Source: a virus (lineage: Duplodnaviria; Caudoviricetes). From it: a DNA stretch of 25,368 bases. Positions within the stretch are counted from its first letter, which is position 1. Each line of letters starts with the position of its first letter. The notes under the pieces were generated by a model. It saw nothing but the letters and a program-made list of their open reading frames with translations. It had not been told where the DNA came from and searched no databases. Of this stretch, positions 9,349-25,368 are shown in pieces. The position numbers and the translations under genes are program-made. The DNA lies in IMG/VR virus record IMGVR_UViG_3300011443_000051, positions 1-25,368 of that record. One strand, 5' to 3'.

Positions 9349-10338
9349 TTAAAATTCGTTTAGGAACCTCTTAACGTCTTTCCACTCCTCTAGAGTTCTA
9401 GCCCAATTGAAGTGGGAGCGCTCTCGCGCACTTTCACAGCTAAAGTCATAGGTGGCAAGCAGCCAATTTAGTTTGTCTTCCCACTCGTCGAAGTCATCAT
9501 GACGTTCACAGAAGTTCGCAGCCCAACCCATAGCCTCTCTAGTTCCAGCTGTATCTGTGAGTAGACTTGGGATGCCTGAACAAGCTGACTCCACCGCAAC
9601 CCTTCCATAAGATTCATATTTAGAAGGAACGAGCACAACTTTTGACTGCCGGTACACATCCAGGATGTTATTTGTGTGAGGTAGGATCGTAACGTTTCCA
9701 GGTAGATCAGATGGAATATACTGGTCCCCGTACCCACCTTGAACCCCAAGAAACTTTTCGTGGGGAAAGCGTCTAGCCAACTCATAGAAGGTCAGTCCAC
9801 CCTTATCATAGGATAGTTTATTGGTTGTCCCGATAGTTAGGTTGATGAGGGTGATGTACTCTCTGGTTGTCTCAACGGTGTATCTCTTGGGATCTACCGG
9901 AGGGTGGAAGAGTACCTTAGGGATTCGAAGAGGGACACTTTTGTAAGCTCCCATAATCCATTCGGTATTATAGATTAGACCGTGAGCATACTTCTCAGCT
10001 GACCCGACACAGTAGTCCTGATCATTGTGGAGGAGATGAATAGCTTTCTTCTTATGTTTCTCTGCGACCATTCCTGATCTAGCAGCACACTCTAGGTGTG
10101 AAATAATTAAATCATTGGTTGGGAAGTACAACTCAGGATCTCTCTTAGATGAGTGAGCCTGGACCTTGACCCCATCGAGTACGTAACTACCTGAACCGTC
10201 AGGATGTGGTTTGCTCAGGAGAGCAGTCGTGGTATGCTTCTCAAGACGGAGTAGTCGCATAATATCGTGTAGTGTGGTTTCCGCTCCGCCGTTATGTCCG
10301 GAGCCTACGTAAGCGTGGGAGTAACTAAGGATGTTCAA
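9349..10338 (-). CDS. Glycosyltransferase, GT-B fold (GT4-like)
   Basis: 329 aa; N-terminal GGAE motif, YNTEW, DKGG, and C-terminal VLVPSKYESYGRVAVESACSGIP (E-x7-E motif). TTG start with AGGA RBS. Confidence 0.92.
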   Translation of the reverse strand: MNILSYSHAYVGSGHNGGAETTLHDIMRLLRLEKHTTTALLSKPHPDGSGSYVLDGVKVQAHSSKRDPELYFPTNDLIISHLECAARSGMVAEKHKKKAIHLLHNDQDYCVGSAEKYAHGLIYNTEWIMGAYKSVPLRIPKVLFHPPVDPKRYTVETTREYITLINLTIGTTNKLSYDKGGLTFYELARRFPHEKFLGVQGGYGDQYIPSDLPGNVTILPHTNNILDVYRQSKVVLVPSKYESYGRVAVESACSGIPSLLTDTAGTREAMGWAANFCERHDDFDEWEDKLNWLLATYDFSCESARERSHFNWARTLEEWKDVKRFLNEF

Positions 10339-10568
10339 TGATTGATCCTATACTTGTTTTCTTAAGGAGAAAAAGAGAGGAGGCTAAAATGAGCCGTAAC
10401 AGCCTGTACTACAAAGAGGCGTTGCTTTGCCCAGCCACCGTCCGTGGTTGGGAGATCGGAGAGAAGTCCCCTAAGTTGCGGGACCTTCGTATTCTCGCAG
10501 AACGTCTCGGTTATGAGGTCTGCTTAAAACCAATTAACGGAGAGGGGGAGGAATACCTCCCCCTCTGA
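10338..10568 (+). CDS. XRE/Cro-family helix-turn-helix DNA-binding protein
   Basis: 76 aa; LRRKREEAKMS...ATVRGWEIGEKSPKLRDLRILAERLG matches the HTH_XRE pattern. It exactly fills the gap between the capsid and GT genes; AAGGA RBS. Confidence 0.85.
   Translation: MIDPILVFLRRKREEAKMSRNSLYYKEALLCPATVRGWEIGEKSPKLRDLRILAERLGYEVCLKPINGEGEEYLPL
10541..10566. terminator. Strong hairpin after the major capsid gene (terminator or mRNA-stabilising)
   Basis: 11-bp stem AGAGGGGGAGG/CCTCCCCCTCT with a 4-nt loop, 6 nt past the capsid stop. It lies where the capsid and HTH genes converge; the U-tract is weak. Confidence 0.7.
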
Positions 10569-12167: not shown

Positions 12168-13694
12168 CTAGGATTTAGGCTTAGGTTTAGACGTGGGTTT
12201 TGGTTTGGCCTTTACCGCAGCTACAGCATTCTGACCTTGCTGTTTAGCTACACCCATATCTCCATCTTCCGCTTGCTGACCCTGCTCAAGGGCCATCTCT
12301 TGAGCCATCTTTTGCTGTTCCTCGAACTGTTCTTTAGCCGAGGCGATCTGGTCGTTAGTGAACAAACCAGTAACCTTCATAGCGATATCTAGGGCTACTC
12401 CACCAGCAGTTAACTTACTGAATAGATCACCAAGACCAGCGAGGTCCTTAACCTCAGCGTCCCTCCACAGAGTGACTACCTCAGTCTCTTTCGCTTTTGC
12501 TGTATCGCCATCAATCTTGAAGGCAAGTCTCATTACTCTTTCATAAGCCCAACCGACAGCTTCCTGTCGTAGTCTAATCTTTGTTACTAAGGCTGACTGG
12601 TCCTGAGTTAGGGTATCCCCTGATACGTTAACCATCCTATTCATTAGATAGGTGGCGGGTGTCCCTGTGACGGCAGCCAAATGGCCAACATCGTCATTGA
12701 TAGCAGCATTAATCTGAGTGAAGTCAACAGCATCAAACTGACCGAACTTGGCTTCCTGATTAACAGTCGCCCAAACCATGTCAGCGCCAGCTTTAAACTC
12801 TTCGCCCTTTTTAGCTCCGGTCATCCATCGCTGGTTGAACGCCTGACTCTTAGAGAGGACCATTCGCTCCAACATCACGGTATTAATACGATCCTGAATG
12901 TCGATGACACCCTCGAACTCGCCTCTCCCGAGGGAGCCGAACGCTGGTTGCCAGTTCACCCGAATCAACGTCACCTCACCTACGGGGTTAGGCTGCTCAT
13001 CTACGAGCTTGAAACCTCCGGCCGCAGCACTCCGACCTACAAGAATCTGAGTCAAAGAAGCAATATCGGTTCCTACGTAATCAGTGATAGTTGGACCCTG
13101 GTAGAGCAAGATAGATTCTGGTAGATATAGAACCGCCCAAATGGTTTGACTTGCGTCATCTTGCCACATCTTTAGGCCAGCAAGCAACCTAGTCGGGTGA
13201 CGTGGGTCAGACTCAGTGATACATAGCCGGGGATCTTCTGCTGTAATAATAGGAAGACCATCACCATCTTCATCCTCCTCTAGTGGAGGAGCTACGAGTA
13301 CGTAAGCATCCCCAAACACAGAAGCCGTGTTAATGATAATAGAACTCTGAAGATCCATGTTATTAGCGGTCCAGATCTTCTTGGCATCCTCATCTTCTTG
13401 GGACTCTGGGCCAAACTGGAATCCATTAACTTTCATACGATTGGTTACAGCCTGAGCAATCAGGACACAATAATTAGTTCTGCACTTTCTCTGTAGCTCA
13501 CGTAGCGCAACCACGTATCTCTTATCACCATTAGGGTAGTCATGGTTTCCAAGCATATATCGTTCTAATCTGTCATACCTTGTTTGACGACTTAGGAGAC
13601 GTTGGGTCAGTCTAGTTAGGTACCATCTCGGAGATCCGGGGGTGATTACTTCACCATCTATGACCGTCCCATCCATCGGTTGTGACACCGACAT
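12168..13694 (-). CDS. Portal protein (SPP1 gp6-like, actinophage type)
   Basis: 508 aa; motifs RLERYMLG, TNYCVLIA, IWTANNMD, VIDIQDRIN, QAFNQRW, KFGQF and NVSGD. Confidence 0.95.
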   Translation of the reverse strand: MSVSQPMDGTVIDGEVITPGSPRWYLTRLTQRLLSRQTRYDRLERYMLGNHDYPNGDKRYVVALRELQRKCRTNYCVLIAQAVTNRMKVNGFQFGPESQEDEDAKKIWTANNMDLQSSIIINTASVFGDAYVLVAPPLEEDEDGDGLPIITAEDPRLCITESDPRHPTRLLAGLKMWQDDASQTIWAVLYLPESILLYQGPTITDYVGTDIASLTQILVGRSAAAGGFKLVDEQPNPVGEVTLIRVNWQPAFGSLGRGEFEGVIDIQDRINTVMLERMVLSKSQAFNQRWMTGAKKGEEFKAGADMVWATVNQEAKFGQFDAVDFTQINAAINDDVGHLAAVTGTPATYLMNRMVNVSGDTLTQDQSALVTKIRLRQEAVGWAYERVMRLAFKIDGDTAKAKETEVVTLWRDAEVKDLAGLGDLFSKLTAGGVALDIAMKVTGLFTNDQIASAKEQFEEQQKMAQEMALEQGQQAEDGDMGVAKQQGQNAVAAVKAKPKPTSKPKPKS

Positions 13695-13705
13695 TCACCT
13701 CCCTC

Positions 13706-15298
13706 TTAATATGAAAAGACCGTATACTGTCTATCTACTAGCGCTCCATCTTGGATAGCTAGAGCCGCAGCTTCAACAGCAAGTACGGAAGCTTGAGCAG
13801 CACTAATATAACTACGGCTGTATGGAGTCTCTTTACGAATGATAAAACCACCAGGAACCTCTTCTGAGTGAGTGTTTAGGACATGTCTTGAGATGTCTTC
13901 GTCGTTCCATTTGATTCGTCCACCTTCAACAAACTTCTCAAACTGTTGAACAGCCCTACTGAATTTGCCTTTGTTAGAGAACCAGAACTCCTCAACTACA
14001 TCCTCATAGTCTGCGTACCATTTGGAGATGACATCTCTCCGACTAACAGGGTCAGCTACCAGTTTGATACAGTCGTAGTAGTCCAGGATGTTGCGGACTC
14101 TCGCATCAACCTCATCCCATGGAACTTCCCAATCAGTCTTACCAGTACGTCTACCTGTTTCTTTGTCTGTGCCTTGCTGTCTGAAGTCTAAGGGTGGTTC
14201 CCAAAAACCAAGGTTGAATAGTCCACCATCAGTTAGTCTGTAACCAACCAAGGAGGCAGCACCCCTATTAATGGAACCCTTGAAGCCGAGGGCTATTTTG
14301 TCACCTCGACGAAGCTTAATCTTCATATCTCTACAGCTCATCCACTCTGCGAACTTGAGCCAGCTTGAGGGTGGCCTTACTCGCTGATTGAAATAGAATC
14401 TCCGAGAGATGGACTCAGCGTACTGAGGGTCATTGATCTCTTGCCAAATACGATCTAGGTCAATCCATCCTGTAACAGGATGAGCAGCATCCCCATATAC
14501 GAATTGGAGAGCAGGCCATGCCTTCTCCTTATCGAAGATGTCATCAATGACTACCTCACGAGTATCGAAGAGTAGACCTGAAGCTACGCTGTCTTTCTCT
14601 TTCATCTCTTCGTAAGCGTCATGTGTCTTCTCAGCTACCGAGTTCTGTCCGGGGATGGGAGCGTTAGTGGTTTCAATGAACCGACCACCCATCTTAGCTA
14701 GGTTACGAGATAGAGCTTCGTGGAGTTCAGGACCTTGTTCTGCCGGAACCCATAGGTGTGTCTCGTCCATAACTACGAAGGTTGCTCGGTTACCCTCACG
14801 GCCTCTTGGGGACGCGGTAACCTTCTCTAACTTCCTACCTCCAGGGTGAACAGATTTAGCTAACATAACATCCAGACCTGGATATTCGTTATAGACCTCG
14901 CCCTGCATCAACATTTCACGACACAACGAGTAGGTGTTTTCAGCCTGGCTATCTGAGATAGCGGCGATTTGTACTAGAGGAGTAGGAGCAGGAATAGCGA
15001 CAGGCTTACCACTAGCATCCCAGCCGTCAAATCTAACTGGTCCCATAAATTCCGTGCAACAGATAGCAGCCAACAGAGGAGATTTACCCCAACCCTTTGG
15101 ACGTTCAAGTACAGCCTTCCGATATAAGAATTTGCCTGATCGATCTACGGCATAAAACCATAAGATGAACATAGCTTGTTCGTTTGAGTAAACCCATCTT
15201 TCTCCTTGGTACTTACCGTCAGGCTGAGCTAAATATTCACTTCCCCATTCGAGGACGTCCCAGCCCAAGGTATACTTAGGAATTCCTACTGGTAACAT
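13706..15298 (-). CDS. terL: Terminase large subunit (ATPase intact; nuclease site atypical)
   Basis: Walker A RPKGWGKS, Walker B FVVMDETH, coupling motif TTNA, RRFYFNQ. ATG at 15298 follows a CAGGAGG RBS (530 aa); the track start at 15364 overlaps terS. Confidence 0.95.
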   Translation of the reverse strand: MLPVGIPKYTLGWDVLEWGSEYLAQPDGKYQGERWVYSNEQAMFILWFYAVDRSGKFLYRKAVLERPKGWGKSPLLAAICCTEFMGPVRFDGWDASGKPVAIPAPTPLVQIAAISDSQAENTYSLCREMLMQGEVYNEYPGLDVMLAKSVHPGGRKLEKVTASPRGREGNRATFVVMDETHLWVPAEQGPELHEALSRNLAKMGGRFIETTNAPIPGQNSVAEKTHDAYEEMKEKDSVASGLLFDTREVVIDDIFDKEKAWPALQFVYGDAAHPVTGWIDLDRIWQEINDPQYAESISRRFYFNQRVRPPSSWLKFAEWMSCRDMKIKLRRGDKIALGFKGSINRGAASLVGYRLTDGGLFNLGFWEPPLDFRQQGTDKETGRRTGKTDWEVPWDEVDARVRNILDYYDCIKLVADPVSRRDVISKWYADYEDVVEEFWFSNKGKFSRAVQQFEKFVEGGRIKWNDEDISRHVLNTHSEEVPGGFIIRKETPYSRSYISAAQASVLAVEAAALAIQDGALVDRQYTVFSY

Positions 15299-15317: not shown

Positions 15318-15782
15318 CTATGGATCAATAATTGGTTGGTTCCCCAACCTAGTAGCATAATCAACTACGTCTTCAACAGCTGTCTTAATCTCTGAGTCCT
15401 GAATAGCTTCCTTAGTTCTCCTAGGAGAACCTAGGCCGAGTCGAATACGGTCCTCTACTGAGGCTCCAAACATTCCTTCTCGCTTCCGTAGCTCACCTGT
15501 GAGAGCAGCCAAAGCTGTATGACTACAACCATTCATAATTTTGTCATGAACGATCGCAGCAACATAAAGTGATTCCCAGTCCAAGTCAGTGGTATACATA
15601 GCCTGAGGTGAATCTCTCCATTGAGTCCACCAGAACCTAGTTGAGGGGTGCCAAACCTTATCCTTATCACGACTCTCTAAAGCGAATCCTCTCCGTGTAC
15701 CATCCCATTCAGGGAAAGTAACGGACTCCGGAACGAATACCTTGTTGCGTCTAGACTCTGTATCTTTCGGTGGACGTCCCAT
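15318..15782 (-). CDS. terS: Terminase small subunit
   Basis: 154 aa directly upstream of terL; motifs MGRPPK, WHPSTRFWWTQWRDSPQA, DWESL and ELRKREGMFGASVEDRIRL match actinophage small terminases. Confidence 0.88.
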   Translation of the reverse strand: MGRPPKDTESRRNKVFVPESVTFPEWDGTRRGFALESRDKDKVWHPSTRFWWTQWRDSPQAMYTTDLDWESLYVAAIVHDKIMNGCSHTALAALTGELRKREGMFGASVEDRIRLGLGSPRRTKEAIQDSEIKTAVEDVVDYATRLGNQPIIDP

Positions 15783-18166
15783 TACTCTCCCCTCACGGTT
15801 ACGGTGTTTAGCTTTTGGATTACTTCTAGGTTATTAGGTAGTGACTGAGTAGCTGTTACCTCATTTGGAATAGCTACCAGAGTTAGTAGGTTTAGTTCAG
15901 CCTGAACGACTGTTACCGTATCCAACCTCTGGATGATAATTACCGTGGGTACAGGTAGCTCAGTAGTAACAGTGGGAGTGAATCCAGTAACTACCACTAC
16001 GGCATACCCTGAGGAAGCCTGAACAGCAGATCCTGAGTTGATGGCTGTAACTACCACTGAAGCCGTTACGGCTGTTGGAGCTACGTTTGTAGAAGCACCA
16101 TTAGATGTAACAGTTAGAGTTGCTGTTTGAGCAGCCACATGATTCATGATTGCTGATACGCCTACGACAGTTACCGTAGCTGATTGGCTTCCGGGACTAA
16201 CTGTTGACGTTGTTACGTTAGCTGACACCGTAACGTTAGCTACCTGAGCTGAAACGTTACTAGCTCCCGTAGGAGCGGGATTGTTAGCTGTTACTGAAAC
16301 CAAGGCTACTTCAGCTTGAACATTTTGGAAGTTACCTACTCCTGTACCCAACCAGGGGTAAGCTCTCCCCCAAGGGGTCTTACCAGGTCTGAATACAGTA
16401 GACGAGTTATATACTTCACCCTGTTGAACAATGGTGACCGTAGAGTCGTTAGCAGTAACGGAGACGCTAGCCGAACTAGCCGGGACACTGATCGCTGGAT
16501 TAGGAGCGTTTCCTGTAACCGTTACTGAAGCTGACTGACTACCAGTAGATACCGTAGAAGTTGTGTTGTTAGAGGTGACTGTCACGGTAGCTGAACCAGC
16601 TCCGGGACTAACCTTTATCGTCGACCCGTTCCCTGTGACACTGACGGTGGCTGAACCTACAGAAGGTGAAACCGTCTGAGAGGTGTTGTTTGCCGTTACT
16701 ACTACTGAGGCTGACTCAGCTGTAGCTACTACAGCGACAGTAGGATCTGCGTCATTTCCAGTAACCACTACAGAGCCACTACCAGGATTCACCCTGATAG
16801 ATGGACTTGGGTTATTACTTGTGACAGTTACGGCGGCTGAACTAGGTCCTGTGCTGACTGTCGAGGTAGTTACATCACCCAATACGACTACTGTAGCTGA
16901 ACCAGCACCCGGAGAAACAAACGGATTAGGATTATTCCCAGTAACGATAACTGAACCACTACCAACTACAGGACTAACTAGGGATGTAGTATCTCCACCC
17001 AACACAGTTACGTTAGCTACTTCTGCGTAAACAGTCGTACCCGTAATAATCGTGGAGTCTCCCGCTGCCACTGTTACAGTGGCACACTCAGCGGACACGC
17101 TAACTGACATACCAGGGTTATTAGCAGTGACAGCTACAGCGATACTTTGTGAGCCTGTGAAGACTGTAGAGGTGGTATTGTTACCGGTAACAGTTACAGC
17201 ACCACTACCGGAACCAGGTTTAACTGTAGTTGTTGGGTTATTACCAGTAACGGTAACTGAGGCAGCCTGAGAACCAGGCTTAACATCCATAGTCGGGTTG
17301 TTACCCGTGACCGTAACGGCTGCGGACTGCGACCCTGGCTTAATAGTGGTCGTAGTGTTGTTAGCAGTTACGGTAAGAGAGATAAGTTCAGCGTCTACGT
17401 TAGTTGCGCCTGCCTCAGCCGCAACCTCAGAACCAGTACCTAGCCAAGTACTATATGGAGTAAATGGATAGGGTGTACCGGGTAGAAACGATGGATGTAA
17501 GAATGTAAGTCCGGGATCACCAACGGTGGATGATACGAGTTCCTTGACTACAACCCCACACCAAGACCATGAAGCGTTGTTAGCTGTGGTGTTGAAAGAC
17601 TGTGAGGTACCACCAGTACCTTCGATGTAGGAGAAACAACCTGACTGAGCACCAAGGTCGTTCTCGTATAGAGAGGTACCTGTATCAATGGATACACCCG
17701 TTACAGCTCCAGCGCCCTCGGACAAACATACAAGAGCGATCCAGTCAGCCAAGCTGTCTGTATAGTCAAGGGTTATTGTGGGGTTGGATGCCGTTCCGTT
17801 GTTGCCTGTCTCAACATCTACTTCCGTAGACCCAGAAGTAGAGGTAACCGTCACTGCTGTAGCAGCATAGTTTAGGGTGCTGTTGATATCGATAGCTACA
17901 GTTTGAGCCCCACTTAGAACACCCTCACCCAAGAAATATGAGTAGGCTGCTGTGGGGTCTCCACCTCCAGCTTGGCTCTGATACTCTAGTCTGGTCATTG
18001 CTACGCCACCATAGGTGACACCAACAACCTGATCTGTTGTACCCTCACCTTGTGCGATCAATACGATTACTCCAGCAGGAGTACCCGAGGGTGTGTGAGT
18101 CCAGCTACCGTCAGCGGATGAGTTTGTGGCGGTAAGCTGAGACTTAGCATCAAAGGCAATAGCCAC
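15782..18166 (-). CDS. Putative virion fibre/surface protein with ~20-aa Ser/Thr/Val repeats
   Basis: 794 aa; N-terminal ~210-aa beta-rich domain followed by many repeats such as VTGNNPTTTVKPGSGSGAVT; stop overlaps the terS start (TAATG). Confidence 0.7.
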   Translation of the reverse strand: MAIAFDAKSQLTATNSSADGSWTHTPSGTPAGVIVLIAQGEGTTDQVVGVTYGGVAMTRLEYQSQAGGGDPTAAYSYFLGEGVLSGAQTVAIDINSTLNYAATAVTVTSTSGSTEVDVETGNNGTASNPTITLDYTDSLADWIALVCLSEGAGAVTGVSIDTGTSLYENDLGAQSGCFSYIEGTGGTSQSFNTTANNASWSWCGVVVKELVSSTVGDPGLTFLHPSFLPGTPYPFTPYSTWLGTGSEVAAEAGATNVDAELISLTVTANNTTTTIKPGSQSAAVTVTGNNPTMDVKPGSQAASVTVTGNNPTTTVKPGSGSGAVTVTGNNTTSTVFTGSQSIAVAVTANNPGMSVSVSAECATVTVAAGDSTIITGTTVYAEVANVTVLGGDTTSLVSPVVGSGSVIVTGNNPNPFVSPGAGSATVVVLGDVTTSTVSTGPSSAAVTVTSNNPSPSIRVNPGSGSVVVTGNDADPTVAVVATAESASVVVTANNTSQTVSPSVGSATVSVTGNGSTIKVSPGAGSATVTVTSNNTTSTVSTGSQSASVTVTGNAPNPAISVPASSASVSVTANDSTVTIVQQGEVYNSSTVFRPGKTPWGRAYPWLGTGVGNFQNVQAEVALVSVTANNPAPTGASNVSAQVANVTVSANVTTSTVSPGSQSATVTVVGVSAIMNHVAAQTATLTVTSNGASTNVAPTAVTASVVVTAINSGSAVQASSGYAVVVVTGFTPTVTTELPVPTVIIIQRLDTVTVVQAELNLLTLVAIPNEVTATQSLPNNLEVIQKLNTVTVRGE
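16420..17410 (-). repeat. Degenerate ~60-nt (20-codon) coding tandem repeat array
   Basis: Period is visible in the DNA (compare the lines starting at 17161, 17221, 17281 and 17341) and in the protein; boundaries are approximate. Confidence 0.85.
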
Positions 18167-19527: not shown

Positions 19528-19841
19528 AAATCGACAACTCCATATAAGATAGTGGTTTCCGAGGTATCTAACCTCAGTGAGTGTCTGACGTCAGTCAACC
19601 CGAGGAAAGCCGCTACCTGAACGGAGGTGAGAGCCGTAGTGATGATTCCCGCTGGACCACTAACCGTGATCCCGTTACCTTCGGTAAGAGCTAAAACGAC
19701 CTCATCATTGTCATAAAAGGTATGAGTGATAGCTTCACTATCTAGATCGATAGCTTCGCCCAAAGTATCAACGTAGCTAACTACCAGTTCGTATGCGTCC
19801 CCTAGGACTAATTGAATCCTATACTTTTGTGGCACTGCCAA
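19509..19841 (-). CDS. Small beta-sandwich virion adaptor-like protein (BppU N-terminal-like); start uncertain
   Basis: Motifs IQLVLGDAYELVVSYVDTLGEAIDL, GITV..AGIITTALT and ILYGVV. The TTG at 19841 (MAVPQKY) reduces the overlap with the epimerase compared with the track start at 19910. Confidence 0.6.
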   Translation of the reverse strand: MAVPQKYRIQLVLGDAYELVVSYVDTLGEAIDLDSEAITHTFYDNDEVVLALTEGNGITVSGPAGIITTALTSVQVAAFLGLTDVRHSLRLDTSETTILYGVVDLWQNSW

Positions 19842-20715
19842 TAGCTCTTGATACCCCCTCTTCAATTGAGATCTTTGGGATGTAATGTTCGTTGAAGCGG
19901 GTGGGGTCACCTACTCTGTAGAAGACTCCGGTAGGTTTATCCTGCTGATAGTTGACTGCCATAGTTGTGCAGCCTGTTACTATCGTTCTGGCCATAATCA
20001 TCAGTTCGGCCATCTCAGTACCAACTCCAGTACATACATTTACTGGTCGTCGCTCATCGTTTTCATAGATTGTGTGCGTCCCTCTAATGACATCTTCAAT
20101 ATGTACCCAATCTCTGGTTTGGCCAGGAGGTCCCCACACTGTAAGGTCGCCAGACATAGCACGTCGTATAATGCTTGGAAATGGATAAGTGAGGGCTTGA
20201 TCTGTCCCGTATCCGCTAAATGGCCGAACGACATGTACCCTAAGTCCCTGGTCGGAAGCTGCTTTAGCAATCCGTTCTCCTGTCAGTTTTGCCCATCCGT
20301 AGTTAGCGTCAGGATTTACAAGGTTAGAGTAATCATTAATATAGTCTTCGTAAAGTAGTGGACGATCATTATATTCAGCTACCTGTAAATATTTTGGATA
20401 CGCAGCCGAGCTACTAAAATAGATAACAGCGTCACTACCACCTCGGAGAGCCCACTGGAACATAGTCGCGTCCATGGCGACATTCTTAGCTAAAGCCATA
20501 TTAGATCCGTCGATGTGTGCTCTACCACCAACTTCGTAAGCACAATGGATCAAAAGATCGAAATGTTCCTCTGTATCTTCAGCAAAAAAAAGGAACGCAT
20601 CCTCATCTGGATGGTTCACGATATCTAGTCCGTAGACTTCCCAACCGAGATTCTTCAGGAATTCCTTGTAATTTTTTCCGACAAAGCCTGCGTCCCCGGT
20701 GATTAGTGCTCTCAT
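19819..20715 (-). CDS. NAD-dependent nucleotide-sugar epimerase/dehydratase (extended SDR)
   Basis: 298 aa; ITGDAGFVG (GxxGxxG), YFSSSAAY, YGWAK (YxxxK), RPFSGYG and TRDWVHIED. Confidence 0.95.
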   Translation of the reverse strand: MRALITGDAGFVGKNYKEFLKNLGWEVYGLDIVNHPDEDAFLFFAEDTEEHFDLLIHCAYEVGGRAHIDGSNMALAKNVAMDATMFQWALRGGSDAVIYFSSSAAYPKYLQVAEYNDRPLLYEDYINDYSNLVNPDANYGWAKLTGERIAKAASDQGLRVHVVRPFSGYGTDQALTYPFPSIIRRAMSGDLTVWGPPGQTRDWVHIEDVIRGTHTIYENDERRPVNVCTGVGTEMAELMIMARTIVTGCTTMAVNYQQDKPTGVFYRVGDPTRFNEHYIPKISIEEGVSRAIGSATKV

Positions 20716-21264
20716 CTATGTACATCCCCAAATTTGGAATCGGTAGCCGATTTGCGGCATAGTCTCTCTATATTCTTGTGGCTGCCACCCGGAAGCCTTC
20801 AGTAGTGTTAATACTCCGGCACGATCCCAGCCCCAATAATGCTCCGGGTTATCGTCCGTATACTCATCTAGGGGAGTACTCAGAATAAGCTTCTTAGATT
20901 TAGCTCTGATTAGCTTCAAGACAGCCGTAGGATCATCTAGGTGTTCCAAGGTCTCACAGAGGACGAATACGTCCACTGGGCCGATAAGTTGTAGAGTGTA
21001 TTCGATTGGACCGGTATATTCATATCCTGGTCGATAATCACCGAAAATACGTTCCCGGACTCGTATATTCCGGAGGATGTAACCATCACCTGCGGACAGG
21101 TCAGCACCTCGACCATCTTCGTCATCAAGGAAATCAGCAGCGAGAGCAAGAGTAGTCTGAATGCGTAACACATGATCTGGAAAGATCGAATGGTCATGTT
21201 CATAATTATAGATCTCCGCTAACTCTTCAGGTGTATATTTCGGTCTAAGTCTTCGAATAGTCAC
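20716..21264 (-). CDS. Class I SAM-dependent methyltransferase
   Basis: 182 aa; motif I ADLSAGDG, DVFVLCETLEHLDDP and LILSTP. Confidence 0.85.
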   Translation of the reverse strand: MTIRRLRPKYTPEELAEIYNYEHDHSIFPDHVLRIQTTLALAADFLDDEDGRGADLSAGDGYILRNIRVRERIFGDYRPGYEYTGPIEYTLQLIGPVDVFVLCETLEHLDDPTAVLKLIRAKSKKLILSTPLDEYTDDNPEHYWGWDRAGVLTLLKASGWQPQEYRETMPQIGYRFQIWGCT

Positions 21265-22046
21265 TGTCTACCCCTTGTACGGTGTGGTGCTCTGTGTGGC
21301 CAGTCATCCAATAGGAATCGATGAGTGGGATGTCTTAATTCCTCATTTTCGTCTCTACACTCAGCTACGAACTCATTATCGATTCTAGGAGGAAGAGAAT
21401 AGCGAAATCTACGTCTTTCGAAGCCAAAGAACTCATCATGAGCCATAATCTTGTTTCTAAGCTTAGGGTGCACATTTAATCGCAACCACCACTGATCAAC
21501 CTGATAAAAGTCGTTAGATTCGTAATTTACGGTCAAATGGTTACAAGCCCTAACAACAGTTTCGTAAAAGTTGTCTGGAATCGTGTATGGAAGGTTTTCG
21601 TGAATCAATGGGAAGAGGGAAGCTCTTACTCCGAACAATCCAGCCAAAATAGGAACCCCATGGAAGGGATGATCCCGGATAACGTGGAATTCGAGGTGGT
21701 GCTTCAACCATTCATTGAGAGCGTAATATTCTCGGAAGGAAGGTCGGCTATCAACGTCTCTGGAGAGGTAGTAGTCATAACCATCGGAATACAGCGGGTC
21801 AAGGAAGGCGTACCTCCAAAAGGTAGCGGTTTGGTCCTCAACCATCCCCCTCATACGAAGGATAAGCGCACCCTCACTCTTTAACTCCTCGATAACGGAC
21901 TCAGGAACAGAATCACCGACTGCGAAAGCACACGTAACGTCAAGTTCACCCTCTTTCCAAAGTTTAGCGTTCCTTAACGCTCCCTGGACGTACAAGGGCT
22001 GATCTCCGAAGAGGGTAAAACTAACTAGACCCTTCAATATAACCAA
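21261..22046 (-). CDS. Putative GT-A-like glycosyltransferase (poorly characterised family)
   Basis: 261 aa; SFTLFG..LYVQGALRNA, FWRY, SRDVDSR (DxD), HVIRDHPFH..PILAGLFG and DQWWL; lies inside the GT cassette. Confidence 0.6.
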   Translation of the reverse strand: MVILKGLVSFTLFGDQPLYVQGALRNAKLWKEGELDVTCAFAVGDSVPESVIEELKSEGALILRMRGMVEDQTATFWRYAFLDPLYSDGYDYYLSRDVDSRPSFREYYALNEWLKHHLEFHVIRDHPFHGVPILAGLFGVRASLFPLIHENLPYTIPDNFYETVVRACNHLTVNYESNDFYQVDQWWLRLNVHPKLRNKIMAHDEFFGFERRRFRYSLPPRIDNEFVAECRDENEELRHPTHRFLLDDWPHRAPHRTRGRQ

Positions 22047-22776
22047 ACTCCATCATCATCTTGATTTTACCAACATCCTCTTGGAATCTGGAGATTTCCC
22101 GTCCCTTTGGATCGTGATAGATTAAGTAAGCGTCATTATCGTGTCTAGCCATAAAATTCGAGTTGACAGCACGATATTGCTTGTCATTTTTGTTCTTTCC
22201 AGCTAGAGGGTGCATATGTTCGATGACGACATCCTCAAGGTACTGGATCTTATCGATTGCGGTTCCCCAATCCTTCCATACGACGTCTACACACAGGTGG
22301 TCCATCTCTGGTGGACACATATACCCTACGGCTAAAGCGATGTCGGTGGTAAAACTGATCTGAGTTGGAATTCGATCAAATTGGAAAAGGTCGTTCCCAT
22401 AGACGAATCCTGTCTGAAGCCCTCGGAGCACATCAATATATGACTTGTCCCAGTCGGGTGTTCGTGGACGGTGATCGTCTCCCATGAAGCCGACAGCGAA
22501 ACCGAGCTTCCCTGACTTGGCGTAATGTCTAAAAGCCTCATTAAGGGCTCCGACCATTCCTCTTCTGGTGACGCCAGCAACATAATATTCCCATCTGTTA
22601 TCATTCTTGGAGATGTACCGAGCTAAATCCCTGTCATCTTCGTCAAAAACGAACACAACCTTCGTCCGACAGCTTGCATACCTATAAAATTCGCCTGCAA
22701 AGTCAGCTAAGTTGTCCGGTCTGCCCCTCGTGGGGACAAAAATTGTCAATTCGGGGGGTGAAGAGGTTAGATCCAC
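22021..22776 (-). CDS. Glycosyltransferase, GT2-like (GT-A fold)
   Basis: 251 aa; TIFVPTRGRP, VFVFDEDD, FMGDDH, VYGND and VIEHMHP. Confidence 0.88.
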   Translation of the reverse strand: MDLTSSPPELTIFVPTRGRPDNLADFAGEFYRYASCRTKVVFVFDEDDRDLARYISKNDNRWEYYVAGVTRRGMVGALNEAFRHYAKSGKLGFAVGFMGDDHRPRTPDWDKSYIDVLRGLQTGFVYGNDLFQFDRIPTQISFTTDIALAVGYMCPPEMDHLCVDVVWKDWGTAIDKIQYLEDVVIEHMHPLAGKNKNDKQYRAVNSNFMARHDNDAYLIYHDPKGREISRFQEDVGKIKMMMEFGYIEGSS

Positions 22777-23428
22777 GTTGAATTTCCCTAATTTTAGTCT
22801 TGTTACCTACATTTTGGTTGTAAGAATCCCTTAGTTGGGTGTTATGAGCGGTAAAATCAAGCTCTCCACCTCTAGGGTGCTGAAAGTTGATGAGATCTCC
22901 ACTGTAATGAGTAGGTTTTCCGAGGAACGTCTTGACAGATACCAAGAATATTTCGTCTTCGTATCCCCATCCAACGATTCGTTCATCCATTCCACCAGCG
23001 AGTACCCATTCGCTCGGTCTGATAACAAAAACTCCACCGCAGCTTGGCCCATACGTATAGAGCGGCTTTTTGCGTTGATAACGGTCAGGAGGAGATTTTG
23101 CGTAACGAGCAGGCATAACCCTAACTTTATCAAAGGGGATGTGCAGCCCCCCTTTGTTATAACAGGCTGTGATTGCCTCAGTGAGTGGTCCTTCCTCTGG
23201 AATGCTGTCGGCGTCACAAATAACTACTACGTCATAACCACAGATGTCCGCGTACCCTGCAATACCATTTCTGGTGGCAGCCCTATTGAAGGGAGTATGC
23301 TCCGAGTCATAAACGAACGTATACTTAAAATCGTAAAGCCCTTCTACGGAGGGTCTAACCCTATCAAAGACAGACCTTCTGACTCCCTCACCCCTAAAGG
23401 GGAACCCTAATAGAACCCTCAGTTTCAT
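22703..23428 (-). CDS. Glycosyltransferase, GT2/GT7 (galactosyltransferase C-terminal-like)
   Basis: 241 aa; PFR, FNRAATRN, ICDADS (DxD) and GGMDERIVGWGYEDE; AAGGAAGG RBS. Confidence 0.9.
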   Translation of the reverse strand: MKLRVLLGFPFRGEGVRRSVFDRVRPSVEGLYDFKYTFVYDSEHTPFNRAATRNGIAGYADICGYDVVVICDADSIPEEGPLTEAITACYNKGGLHIPFDKVRVMPARYAKSPPDRYQRKKPLYTYGPSCGGVFVIRPSEWVLAGGMDERIVGWGYEDEIFLVSVKTFLGKPTHYSGDLINFQHPRGGELDFTAHNTQLRDSYNQNVGNKTKIREIQRGSNLFTPRIDNFCPHEGQTGQLS

Positions 23429-25298: not shown

Positions 25299-25368
25299 CT
25301 TTACCGTCTTTAGGGGGATTTTTATCGTTTTCTCTGGGAGAATTTTAGAAAATATGAGACAAACCAGC

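Follow-up and report, generated by a model that had tools for sequence, protein, structure and literature searches.

The window, by which is meant the whole 25,368-nucleotide stretch of DNA analysed, covers 25.4 of 57.1 kb and carries on its minus strand the late-gene arm of a siphovirus. Its gene classes are endolysin-like, glycosylation, small terminase (TerS), large terminase (TerL), portal, scaffold, capsid, connectors, tail tube and tape measure. TerL is situated between TerS and the portal gene, as is proper to a large terminase. The features of this module, with residue counts from the best 120 of 1,342 TerL homologues, are as follows:

12168..13694, minus strand: portal protein, directly after TerL (PF05133, E-value 2e-24; phrog_104)
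13706..15298, minus strand: TerL, 530 amino acids from its ATG (phrog_9, PHROG E-value 2.6e-61), with an ATPase domain (residues ~1–305) and an RNase H-fold nuclease domain (~309–512) without the catalytic acids
15318..15782, minus strand: TerS (Pfam PF25673, E-value 2e-17)
15080..15103, minus strand: Walker A, RPKGWGKS, residues 66–73; K68, G71 and K72 in 120/120
14756..14776, minus strand: Walker B, VVMDETH, residues 175–181; E179 in 120/120, D178 in 117/120
14281..14279, minus strand: K340 (codon AAG), first catalytic Asp position, HK97 D302 by alignment
14263..14261, minus strand: G346 (codon GGT), auxiliary Asp position of the DGSxxxD motif
14053..14051, minus strand: D416 (codon GAC), the one retained acid (ADP motif)
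13804..13802, minus strand: S499 (codon AGT), last catalytic Asp position

TerS was present in 15 of the 16 clade contigs clustered (family 6), and the Pfam scan gave no match for the window TerL. Directly upstream of TerS is the gene for a 794 amino acid repetitive protein rich in Val, Thr and Ser (15782–18166), with a weak minor-tail match; in this region structural genes are placed ahead of the terminase. A sugar epimerase, a methyltransferase and several glycosyltransferases precede the head genes (19819–23428), and a GT4 gene lies between capsid and adaptor (9349–10338); the C-terminal residue of the capsid protein is Ser. These glycosylation genes are common to many clade members and are likely to act in virion glycosylation. 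A small HTH gene stands inside the head operon on the opposite strand (10338–10568, plus).

In the standard account one enzyme, TerL, does both the cutting and the pumping. In the window protein the N-terminal ASCE ATPase is complete, with Walker A (K72), Walker B (D178/E179) and motif III; the ATPase motifs had been called intact in an earlier note made from the sequence, and the Walker residues prove to be invariant or nearly so in the best 120 homologues. The codons which that note had named for K340 and S499 are right, and the nuclease domain retains D416 as the only one of the three catalytic aspartates. A weak HMM alignment to HK97 TerL (6z6d) puts the Asp of its G-L-D on position 340.

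The TerL structure predicted from a 92-row alignment (pLDDT 91.4) has the RNase H-like fold in its C-terminal half. Its best structural match is HK97 TerL (Foldseek E-value 2e-20, Z 27.0), and the predicted nuclease domain, residues 309–512, superposes on that of G20c (5m1f; Z 17.8, rmsd 3.0, 174 residues aligned) and on that of SPP1 (2wc9; Z 14.0), comparisons of the kind proposed in the earlier note. In the predicted secondary structure K340 is the last residue of the first nuclease strand, D416 comes after the fourth strand and S499 stands at the start of the last helix; these are the canonical places of the three acids (D302, D388 and D471 in HK97, as numbered in PMC9410871).

Loss of the nuclease acids across the clade

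The homologue search gave 1,342 proteins, the best 120 of which (47–100% identity, one being the window's own cluster) were scored. They were compared with 62 non-redundant relatives chosen for Asp at position 340. These Asp-intact relatives have Asp at 346 in 62/62, at 416 in 62/62 and at 499 in 60/60 (2 gaps), in agreement with the consensus given in the earlier note. Among the best 120 of 1,342, position 340 holds Asp or Glu in none; it is Lys in 83, Arg in 15, Ser in 10, Val in 8 and another residue in 4, a basic residue thus standing for the Asp in 98 of 120. Asp is kept at 346 in 2/120, as against 62/62, and at 499 in 7/118, where Ser, Ala, Thr, Phe and Gly are commonest. Position 416 is Asp or Glu in 88/120 and Asn, Ala, His, Met or Cys in 31. 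Counted per homologue (n=118), acids at 340, 416 and 499 number none in 27, one in 88, two in 3 and three in 0. This state throughout the best 120 homologues is neither chance nor private decay, and the loss of acids with intact ATPase motifs is a trait of the clade.

The earlier note had also argued against a single sequencing error, and rightly: an independent contig of 57,089 bp (L086) shows 0 mismatches to the window over 21,590 nt, and no variant bases occur in any of four sequencing runs, one of which is possibly the source. In three of three pairs pN of the nuclease domain was 0.19–0.31 and pS 0.78–0.83, with synonymous sites near saturation, and pN of the ATPase was 0.10–0.14; selection on the dead nuclease domain is purifying, though relaxed.

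TerL is very probably nuclease-dead and, to judge from its sequence, likely to be a pure ATP-driven translocase. The proposal of the earlier note, that the motor would translocate but not cut, is supported by the clade-wide loss of acids, the intact ATPase motifs and the predicted nuclease fold. Such a non-cutting motor resembles gp16 of phage phi29, for which ATPase activity is the only one marked in Table 1 of PMC13595911. Phi29, however, packages with pRNA a terminal-protein genome made by protein priming, whereas in the clade TerS, cos boxes, integrases and a nuclease-fold domain of full size are present and a family B polymerase (PolB) was not detected.

Four residues, E436 (97% Asp or Glu), E454, H477 and E480, are conserved in the clade without being so among the Asp-intact relatives. 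Tyr497 (Tyr in 99, Phe in 15, other in 4; n=118) and Lys340 (Lys in only 83/120) were considered as new covalent catalysts and rejected.

A TerL tree of 100 rows was built with the motif columns removed, by a quick search without bootstrap. It joins 28 Asp-less rows, the window included, in one group (SH-aLRT 99), nearest to which are L017, L021 and L042, all four Asp being kept in these. Ten further Asp-less rows lie elsewhere, giving at least six changes of state overall. Asp-less lineages outside the main clade are L174, L413, L450, P0132, P0144, P0168, P0202, P0214, P0238 and P0264.

No cultured clade member was found among the matches listed, the best cultured match (40% identity) being Asp-intact, and two distant Asp-less proteins gave no close cultured match. 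The best cultured TerL matches listed (36–40%) are those of actinophages Success, Ponzi and Ibantik and Thermobifida phage P318, all with 3' cos ends, a phrog_9 TerL, a size and replication genes similar to those of the clade, and the four Asp kept. In Ponzi, TerL is annotated as two genes (L004:22753-24365). In a hand-picked alignment of nine cultured actinophage sequences, made without a structural anchor, the first nuclease strand ends in Asp in Corndog, DarthP and Angel but not in Omega, Optimus, MintFen, Ksquared, Giles or TootsiePop (L479, L486, L481, L482, L483 and L487), whose TerL belongs to a different family. As a lead only, this suggests from sequence comparison that Asp-less TerLs may occur in viable laboratory phages. 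A literature search in which little subscription material was covered returned no description of a naturally Asp-less TerL or of blunt cos ends.

Genome ends and the cos site

Contigs of the clade, though from unrelated samples, share a single start point, which lies upstream of the late operon. The cos site consists of a pair of boxes, GGGGGNTACCC and TGTACG. When viral contigs were scanned for both, 120 loci came out, with a spacing peak at 45–48 nt, among them actinophage prophages with Asp-intact TerL. In the window the site is represented by one feature:

25344..25368, minus strand: left physical genome end at 25368, with a degenerate cos box 19 nt inside it (25349..25344); marked by the start of L086 and by runs X1 and X5

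The start of L086 coincides with base 25368, and the contigs of run X1 (possibly the source) and of run X5 (from another study) stop exactly there. These hard stops mark the left genome end and make headful permutation unlikely. The ends are fixed and of unit length at the cos site, and there is little doubt that the genome is cut in this manner.

Offsets between end and second box were counted in loci whose start is a contig end, each distinct sequence of the first 40 nt being counted once. Where TerL is Asp-intact the box lay near the start in 36 of 162 loci, the offset being exactly 14 nt in 28 of these 36 and 19 nt in none. The Asp-less loci had it near the start in 9 of 32, at 19 nt (six), 18, 31 and 13 nt (one each). 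The locus with offset 31 runs through the cos site. The contig of L450, a distant Asp-less lineage, starts 13 nt before the box and was dropped from the test; not every loss of Asp, then, moves the cut to 19. Offset 19 was thus seen in 6 of 8 Asp-less as against 0 of 36 Asp-intact loci (Fisher p 4e-6, kinship uncorrected), a shift of 5 nt at the same cos site. G007 also fits this offset, and a degenerate second box stands at it in G005, L088 and the window. The examination of genome termini suggested in the earlier note has therefore placed the left end, by contig stops, at the family cos site with a displacement of 5 nt. Success, Ponzi, Ibantik and P318 share the cos box at the left end but start 14–15 nt before it and have a long 3' overhang, mapped experimentally as 11 nt in P318 (PMC6893835).

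Four near-complete relatives were available for the right end and for gene content:

G001: 58-kb scaffold of Micromonospora sp. CB01531
G002: Plantactinospora solaniradicis prophage, with 70–73% GC DNA on both flanks
G003: 59.6 kb, linear
G004 (L249–L251): 57.6 kb, circular assembly whose ends overlap by 127 nt

The right end of G003, the one complete linear relative, lies 28 nt after the first box, and 28 + 19 = 47. The intact prophage junction in G002 (81% identity to G003 in the nuclease domain) is likewise 47 nt, the same bases being continuous across the G003 join, so that the ends of G003 abut with no gap and no overlap; junctions in G001, G004 and L024 are 46, 46 and 48 nt. In contrast, the end sums of two Asp-intact controls (G011 and G012) are 36 and 35, or some 10–11 nt short, the shortfall that loss of a 3' overhang through end repair would produce. 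These were the 2 informative of 5 genomes from other libraries, three being incomplete or ending in repeats. A 3' overhang of 9–12 nt is thus not seen in G003, a single genome, and its ends without gap or duplication place the clade break near the middle of the usual overhang, blunt within about 1 base. On the strength of G003, blunt or near-blunt ends are quite probable for the clade; a short overhang may have survived library preparation in that genome. A pattern scan for more right ends gave 3 loci, two of them known already and one without TerL.

The bases at the cut differ between clade members while the distance from box to cut is constant, which points to a ruler anchored by the terminase and a nuclease with little sequence preference. 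The junctions are variable in sequence and not palindromic, inverted terminal repeats amount to 0 nt in G003, and the conserved AC/CG nick motif described for the HNH nickases treated in PMC3592412 is not clear at the clade junctions.

Each of the Corndog and Omega records (L477–L480) carries its 4-nt end sequence at either terminus; G001, G002 and G003 have the same four bases before the cut as Corndog, which may be coincidence. G004 has an AT-rich low-complexity tract near its right end, and also a GGDEF-domain gene (L249:13322-13650 and L249:15145-15846).

The probable cutting nuclease and the proposed rejoining of ends

Gene content was assessed by PHROG and Pfam scans of 148 and 30 chosen ORFs, mostly of G003 and G004. 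The relatives encode a 1,030 amino acid DNA polymerase (phrog_405), which we read as DnaE-like, a proofreading exonuclease, primase, DnaB helicase and ThyX, and also a PD-(D/E)XK exonuclease and endonuclease VII. Serine-type integrases are present in G001 and G003, and G002 is an integrated prophage; the scanned ORFs of G004 gave no integrase match. The protelomerase family (PF16684) was found in 0/4 near-complete relatives, its positive control being detected, and protein-primed PolB (PF03175) in 0/4, without a detected control. As to a second terminase, PF17289 matched in 0/4, and PF20441 gave just a weak match to the known TerL in G004 and none in G003.

An HNH endonuclease of 105–110 amino acids with all the DH..N..CxxCH residues is encoded in 4/4 (G001, G002, G003 and G004), and it is from these relatives that the HNH evidence comes. 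It is homologous to the HNH of Success, Ponzi, Ibantik and P318, which there heads the packaging operon, upstream of TerS, but in the clade the gene is located in the early arm, on the same strand as the late genes, 14–16 kb from cos and away from TerS. It was found in 0/3 partial contigs (G005, G007 and G008; 56–70% complete), and a scan for more genomes with it returned G003 only. Prediction of a complex between the G003 nuclease domain and HNH (24- and 14-row alignments) scored 0.08 (mark 0.32).

Two routes of packaging had been offered in the earlier note. That by pre-formed unit-length genomes, with terminal protein or resolved ends, finds no support: the relatives have a primase, helicase and large-polymerase set and serine integrases, circular and prophage junctions are intact at cos, and neither inverted terminal repeats nor a protelomerase match was seen. 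The other, a separate nuclease acting in trans, is the branch supported; an HNH nuclease was among the genes that the note had suggested looking for.

The closest known system is that of HK97 (TerL gp2, TerS, HNH gp74), the top structural match, which shares the order TerS–TerL–portal, fixed cos ends and an HNH accessory nuclease, seen here in the relatives. HK97 TerL differs in having D302, D388 and D471, and the part of gp74 in its cleavage is stimulation only (PMC9410871, PMC13595911); the clade TerL is without the first and last Asp, and the clade ends are likely blunt. When HK97 TerL cleaves cos, HNH proteins stimulate the reaction and need their metal-binding His for this (PMC13595911, PMC9410871), and according to PMC12967558 the HNH is proposed to nick one strand and TerL the other. 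That source also describes packaging HNHs as non-specific and insufficient alone for cos cleavage, which counts against cutting by HNH only, and states as open the reason why many cos phages need an HNH nuclease as well.

By analogy with these systems HNH is a fairly probable cutter. On balance we favour a translocase-only TerL, with concatemers cut at cos by the small HNH of the phage, probably to a blunt end. The best reading is that the motor translocates and positions, HNH cuts both strands and host ligation recircularises the genome. TerS and TerL would bind the two conserved boxes, 46–48 nt apart, as a ruler, and HNH, the assistant of TerL in HK97-type systems, would cut the two strands about midway along what used to be the 10–11-nt overhang. 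The dead nuclease domain may be retained as a DNA-binding or HNH-docking scaffold, a role suggested by the Lys or Arg that replaces Asp in 98/120. On the simplest path HNH would have taken over the cutting of both strands, the acids of TerL would have been lost and the geometry of the cut would have changed.

Blunt ends need religation, and the injected ends would be rejoined by host ligation before replication or serine-integrase lysogeny. A candidate is end joining by Ku and LigD. Ku is encoded in both host genomes and was found in 0/2 of the phages G003 and G004. Omega (cluster J) and Corndog (cluster O), with 4-nt 3' ends, reportedly circularise by end joining through host LigD (PMC12848934, PMC3706429), but they encode their own Ku, their TerL is of another family with no match to the clade TerL profile, and Corndog keeps the first nuclease Asp. 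End joining can also act against phages (PMC12848934/PMC3706429), and the Ku/LigD step is therefore uncertain.

More tentatively, the clade, one of temperate actinophages on this reading, may have handed genome cutting over entirely from TerL to its HNH helper, giving a blunt cut positioned by the terminase and a blunt tailed-phage chromosome religated by the host. Such loss of Asp would have occurred on no fewer than five further occasions within this TerL family, and also in cultured mycobacteriophages of another family, possibly in escape from immune sensors directed at the active site of terminase. Avs3 binds the active-site residues and the folded nuclease domain of terminase (PMC13601566), and the loss of acids might, speculatively, evade such sensors.

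TerL could be dead and the cutter be endonuclease VII, a protein of the PD-(D/E)XK exonuclease family, an enzyme of the host or some phage protein without annotation. Endonuclease VII and the PD-(D/E)XK protein are indeed encoded in the near-complete relatives, many small ORFs are unannotated, and HNH has moved away from the packaging genes. This is nevertheless unlikely: both genes sit in the replication cluster and are common to Asp-intact relatives, neither all-against-all clustering nor the PHROG and Pfam scans (148 and 30 ORFs) gave a clade-specific nuclease family, and only HNH has a precedent at cos.

We also doubt that TerL still cuts with a site rebuilt from D416 and the clade-specific acids or histidine. 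This would explain the shifted cut, since cut and site changed together; the predicted fold is intact, and the clade-specific conservation of E436, E454, H477 and E480, unmatched in Asp-intact relatives, would fit. Yet the three canonical positions have no acid in 27/118, D416 is itself replaced in 31/120, residue 340 varies (Lys, Arg, Ser, Val, Thr, Ile, Gln) as a new catalytic residue would not, and the candidate acids are predicted to lie on the strand 435–437 and the hairpin 477–488, off the canonical site.

There is only a slight chance that the ends are made by an enzyme that cleaves and holds them (terminal protein, protelomerase-like or recombinase-like), staying attached or resealing while TerL only packages. 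Protein-capped blunt ends would presumably assemble as in G003, the junctions in G001, G002 and G004 are precise, and the phages are without their own Ku. Against this stand the lack of inverted terminal repeats, the non-palindromic and variable junctions, the 0/4 for protelomerase (control detected) and for PolB (without detected control), the ordinary primase, helicase and polymerase set, and G004 with no integrase match.

An active TerL borrowed from a co-infecting helper phage is very improbable, for although both cos boxes are common to many Asp-intact phages and both host genomes have another, distant TerL gene, Asp-intact TerL ends at 14 nt and the clade at 19, and the clade keeps a full head–tail module and its own conserved TerS and TerL. 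Sequencing error or a decaying defective prophage, to which the TerL stop or frameshift in G002 and G007 might point, is next to impossible given 0 variant bases in 4 runs, the Asp-less state in 120 clusters, the best homologues, at 47–100% identity, a pN far below pS and defined linear ends.

Loss of Asp is a real, clade-wide and functionally consequential variant of cos packaging, accompanied by the 5-nt shift, in which we infer HNH to be the cutter. A natural clade in which TerL is apparently unable to cut and the cut has shifted by exactly five bases offers a ready-made separation of function: the place where a cut not made by TerL falls can be read from it, and the role of HNH becomes directly testable. 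Micromonospora sp. CB01531 and Plantactinospora solaniradicis are two culturable lysogen candidates. If the reading is true, a blunt type would be added to the usual list of tailed-phage termini, with the warning that end type may not be readable from TerL phylogeny alone.

TerL is interrupted by an in-frame TAG in the Plantactinospora prophage (G002:C44:66084-67622) and frameshifted in G007 (G007:C1:9706-11215). Many endonuclease VII-like ORFs occur among the structural genes of G004, G005, G007 and G001, one of them adjoining TerL in G004, which suggests that these insertions are active homing elements.
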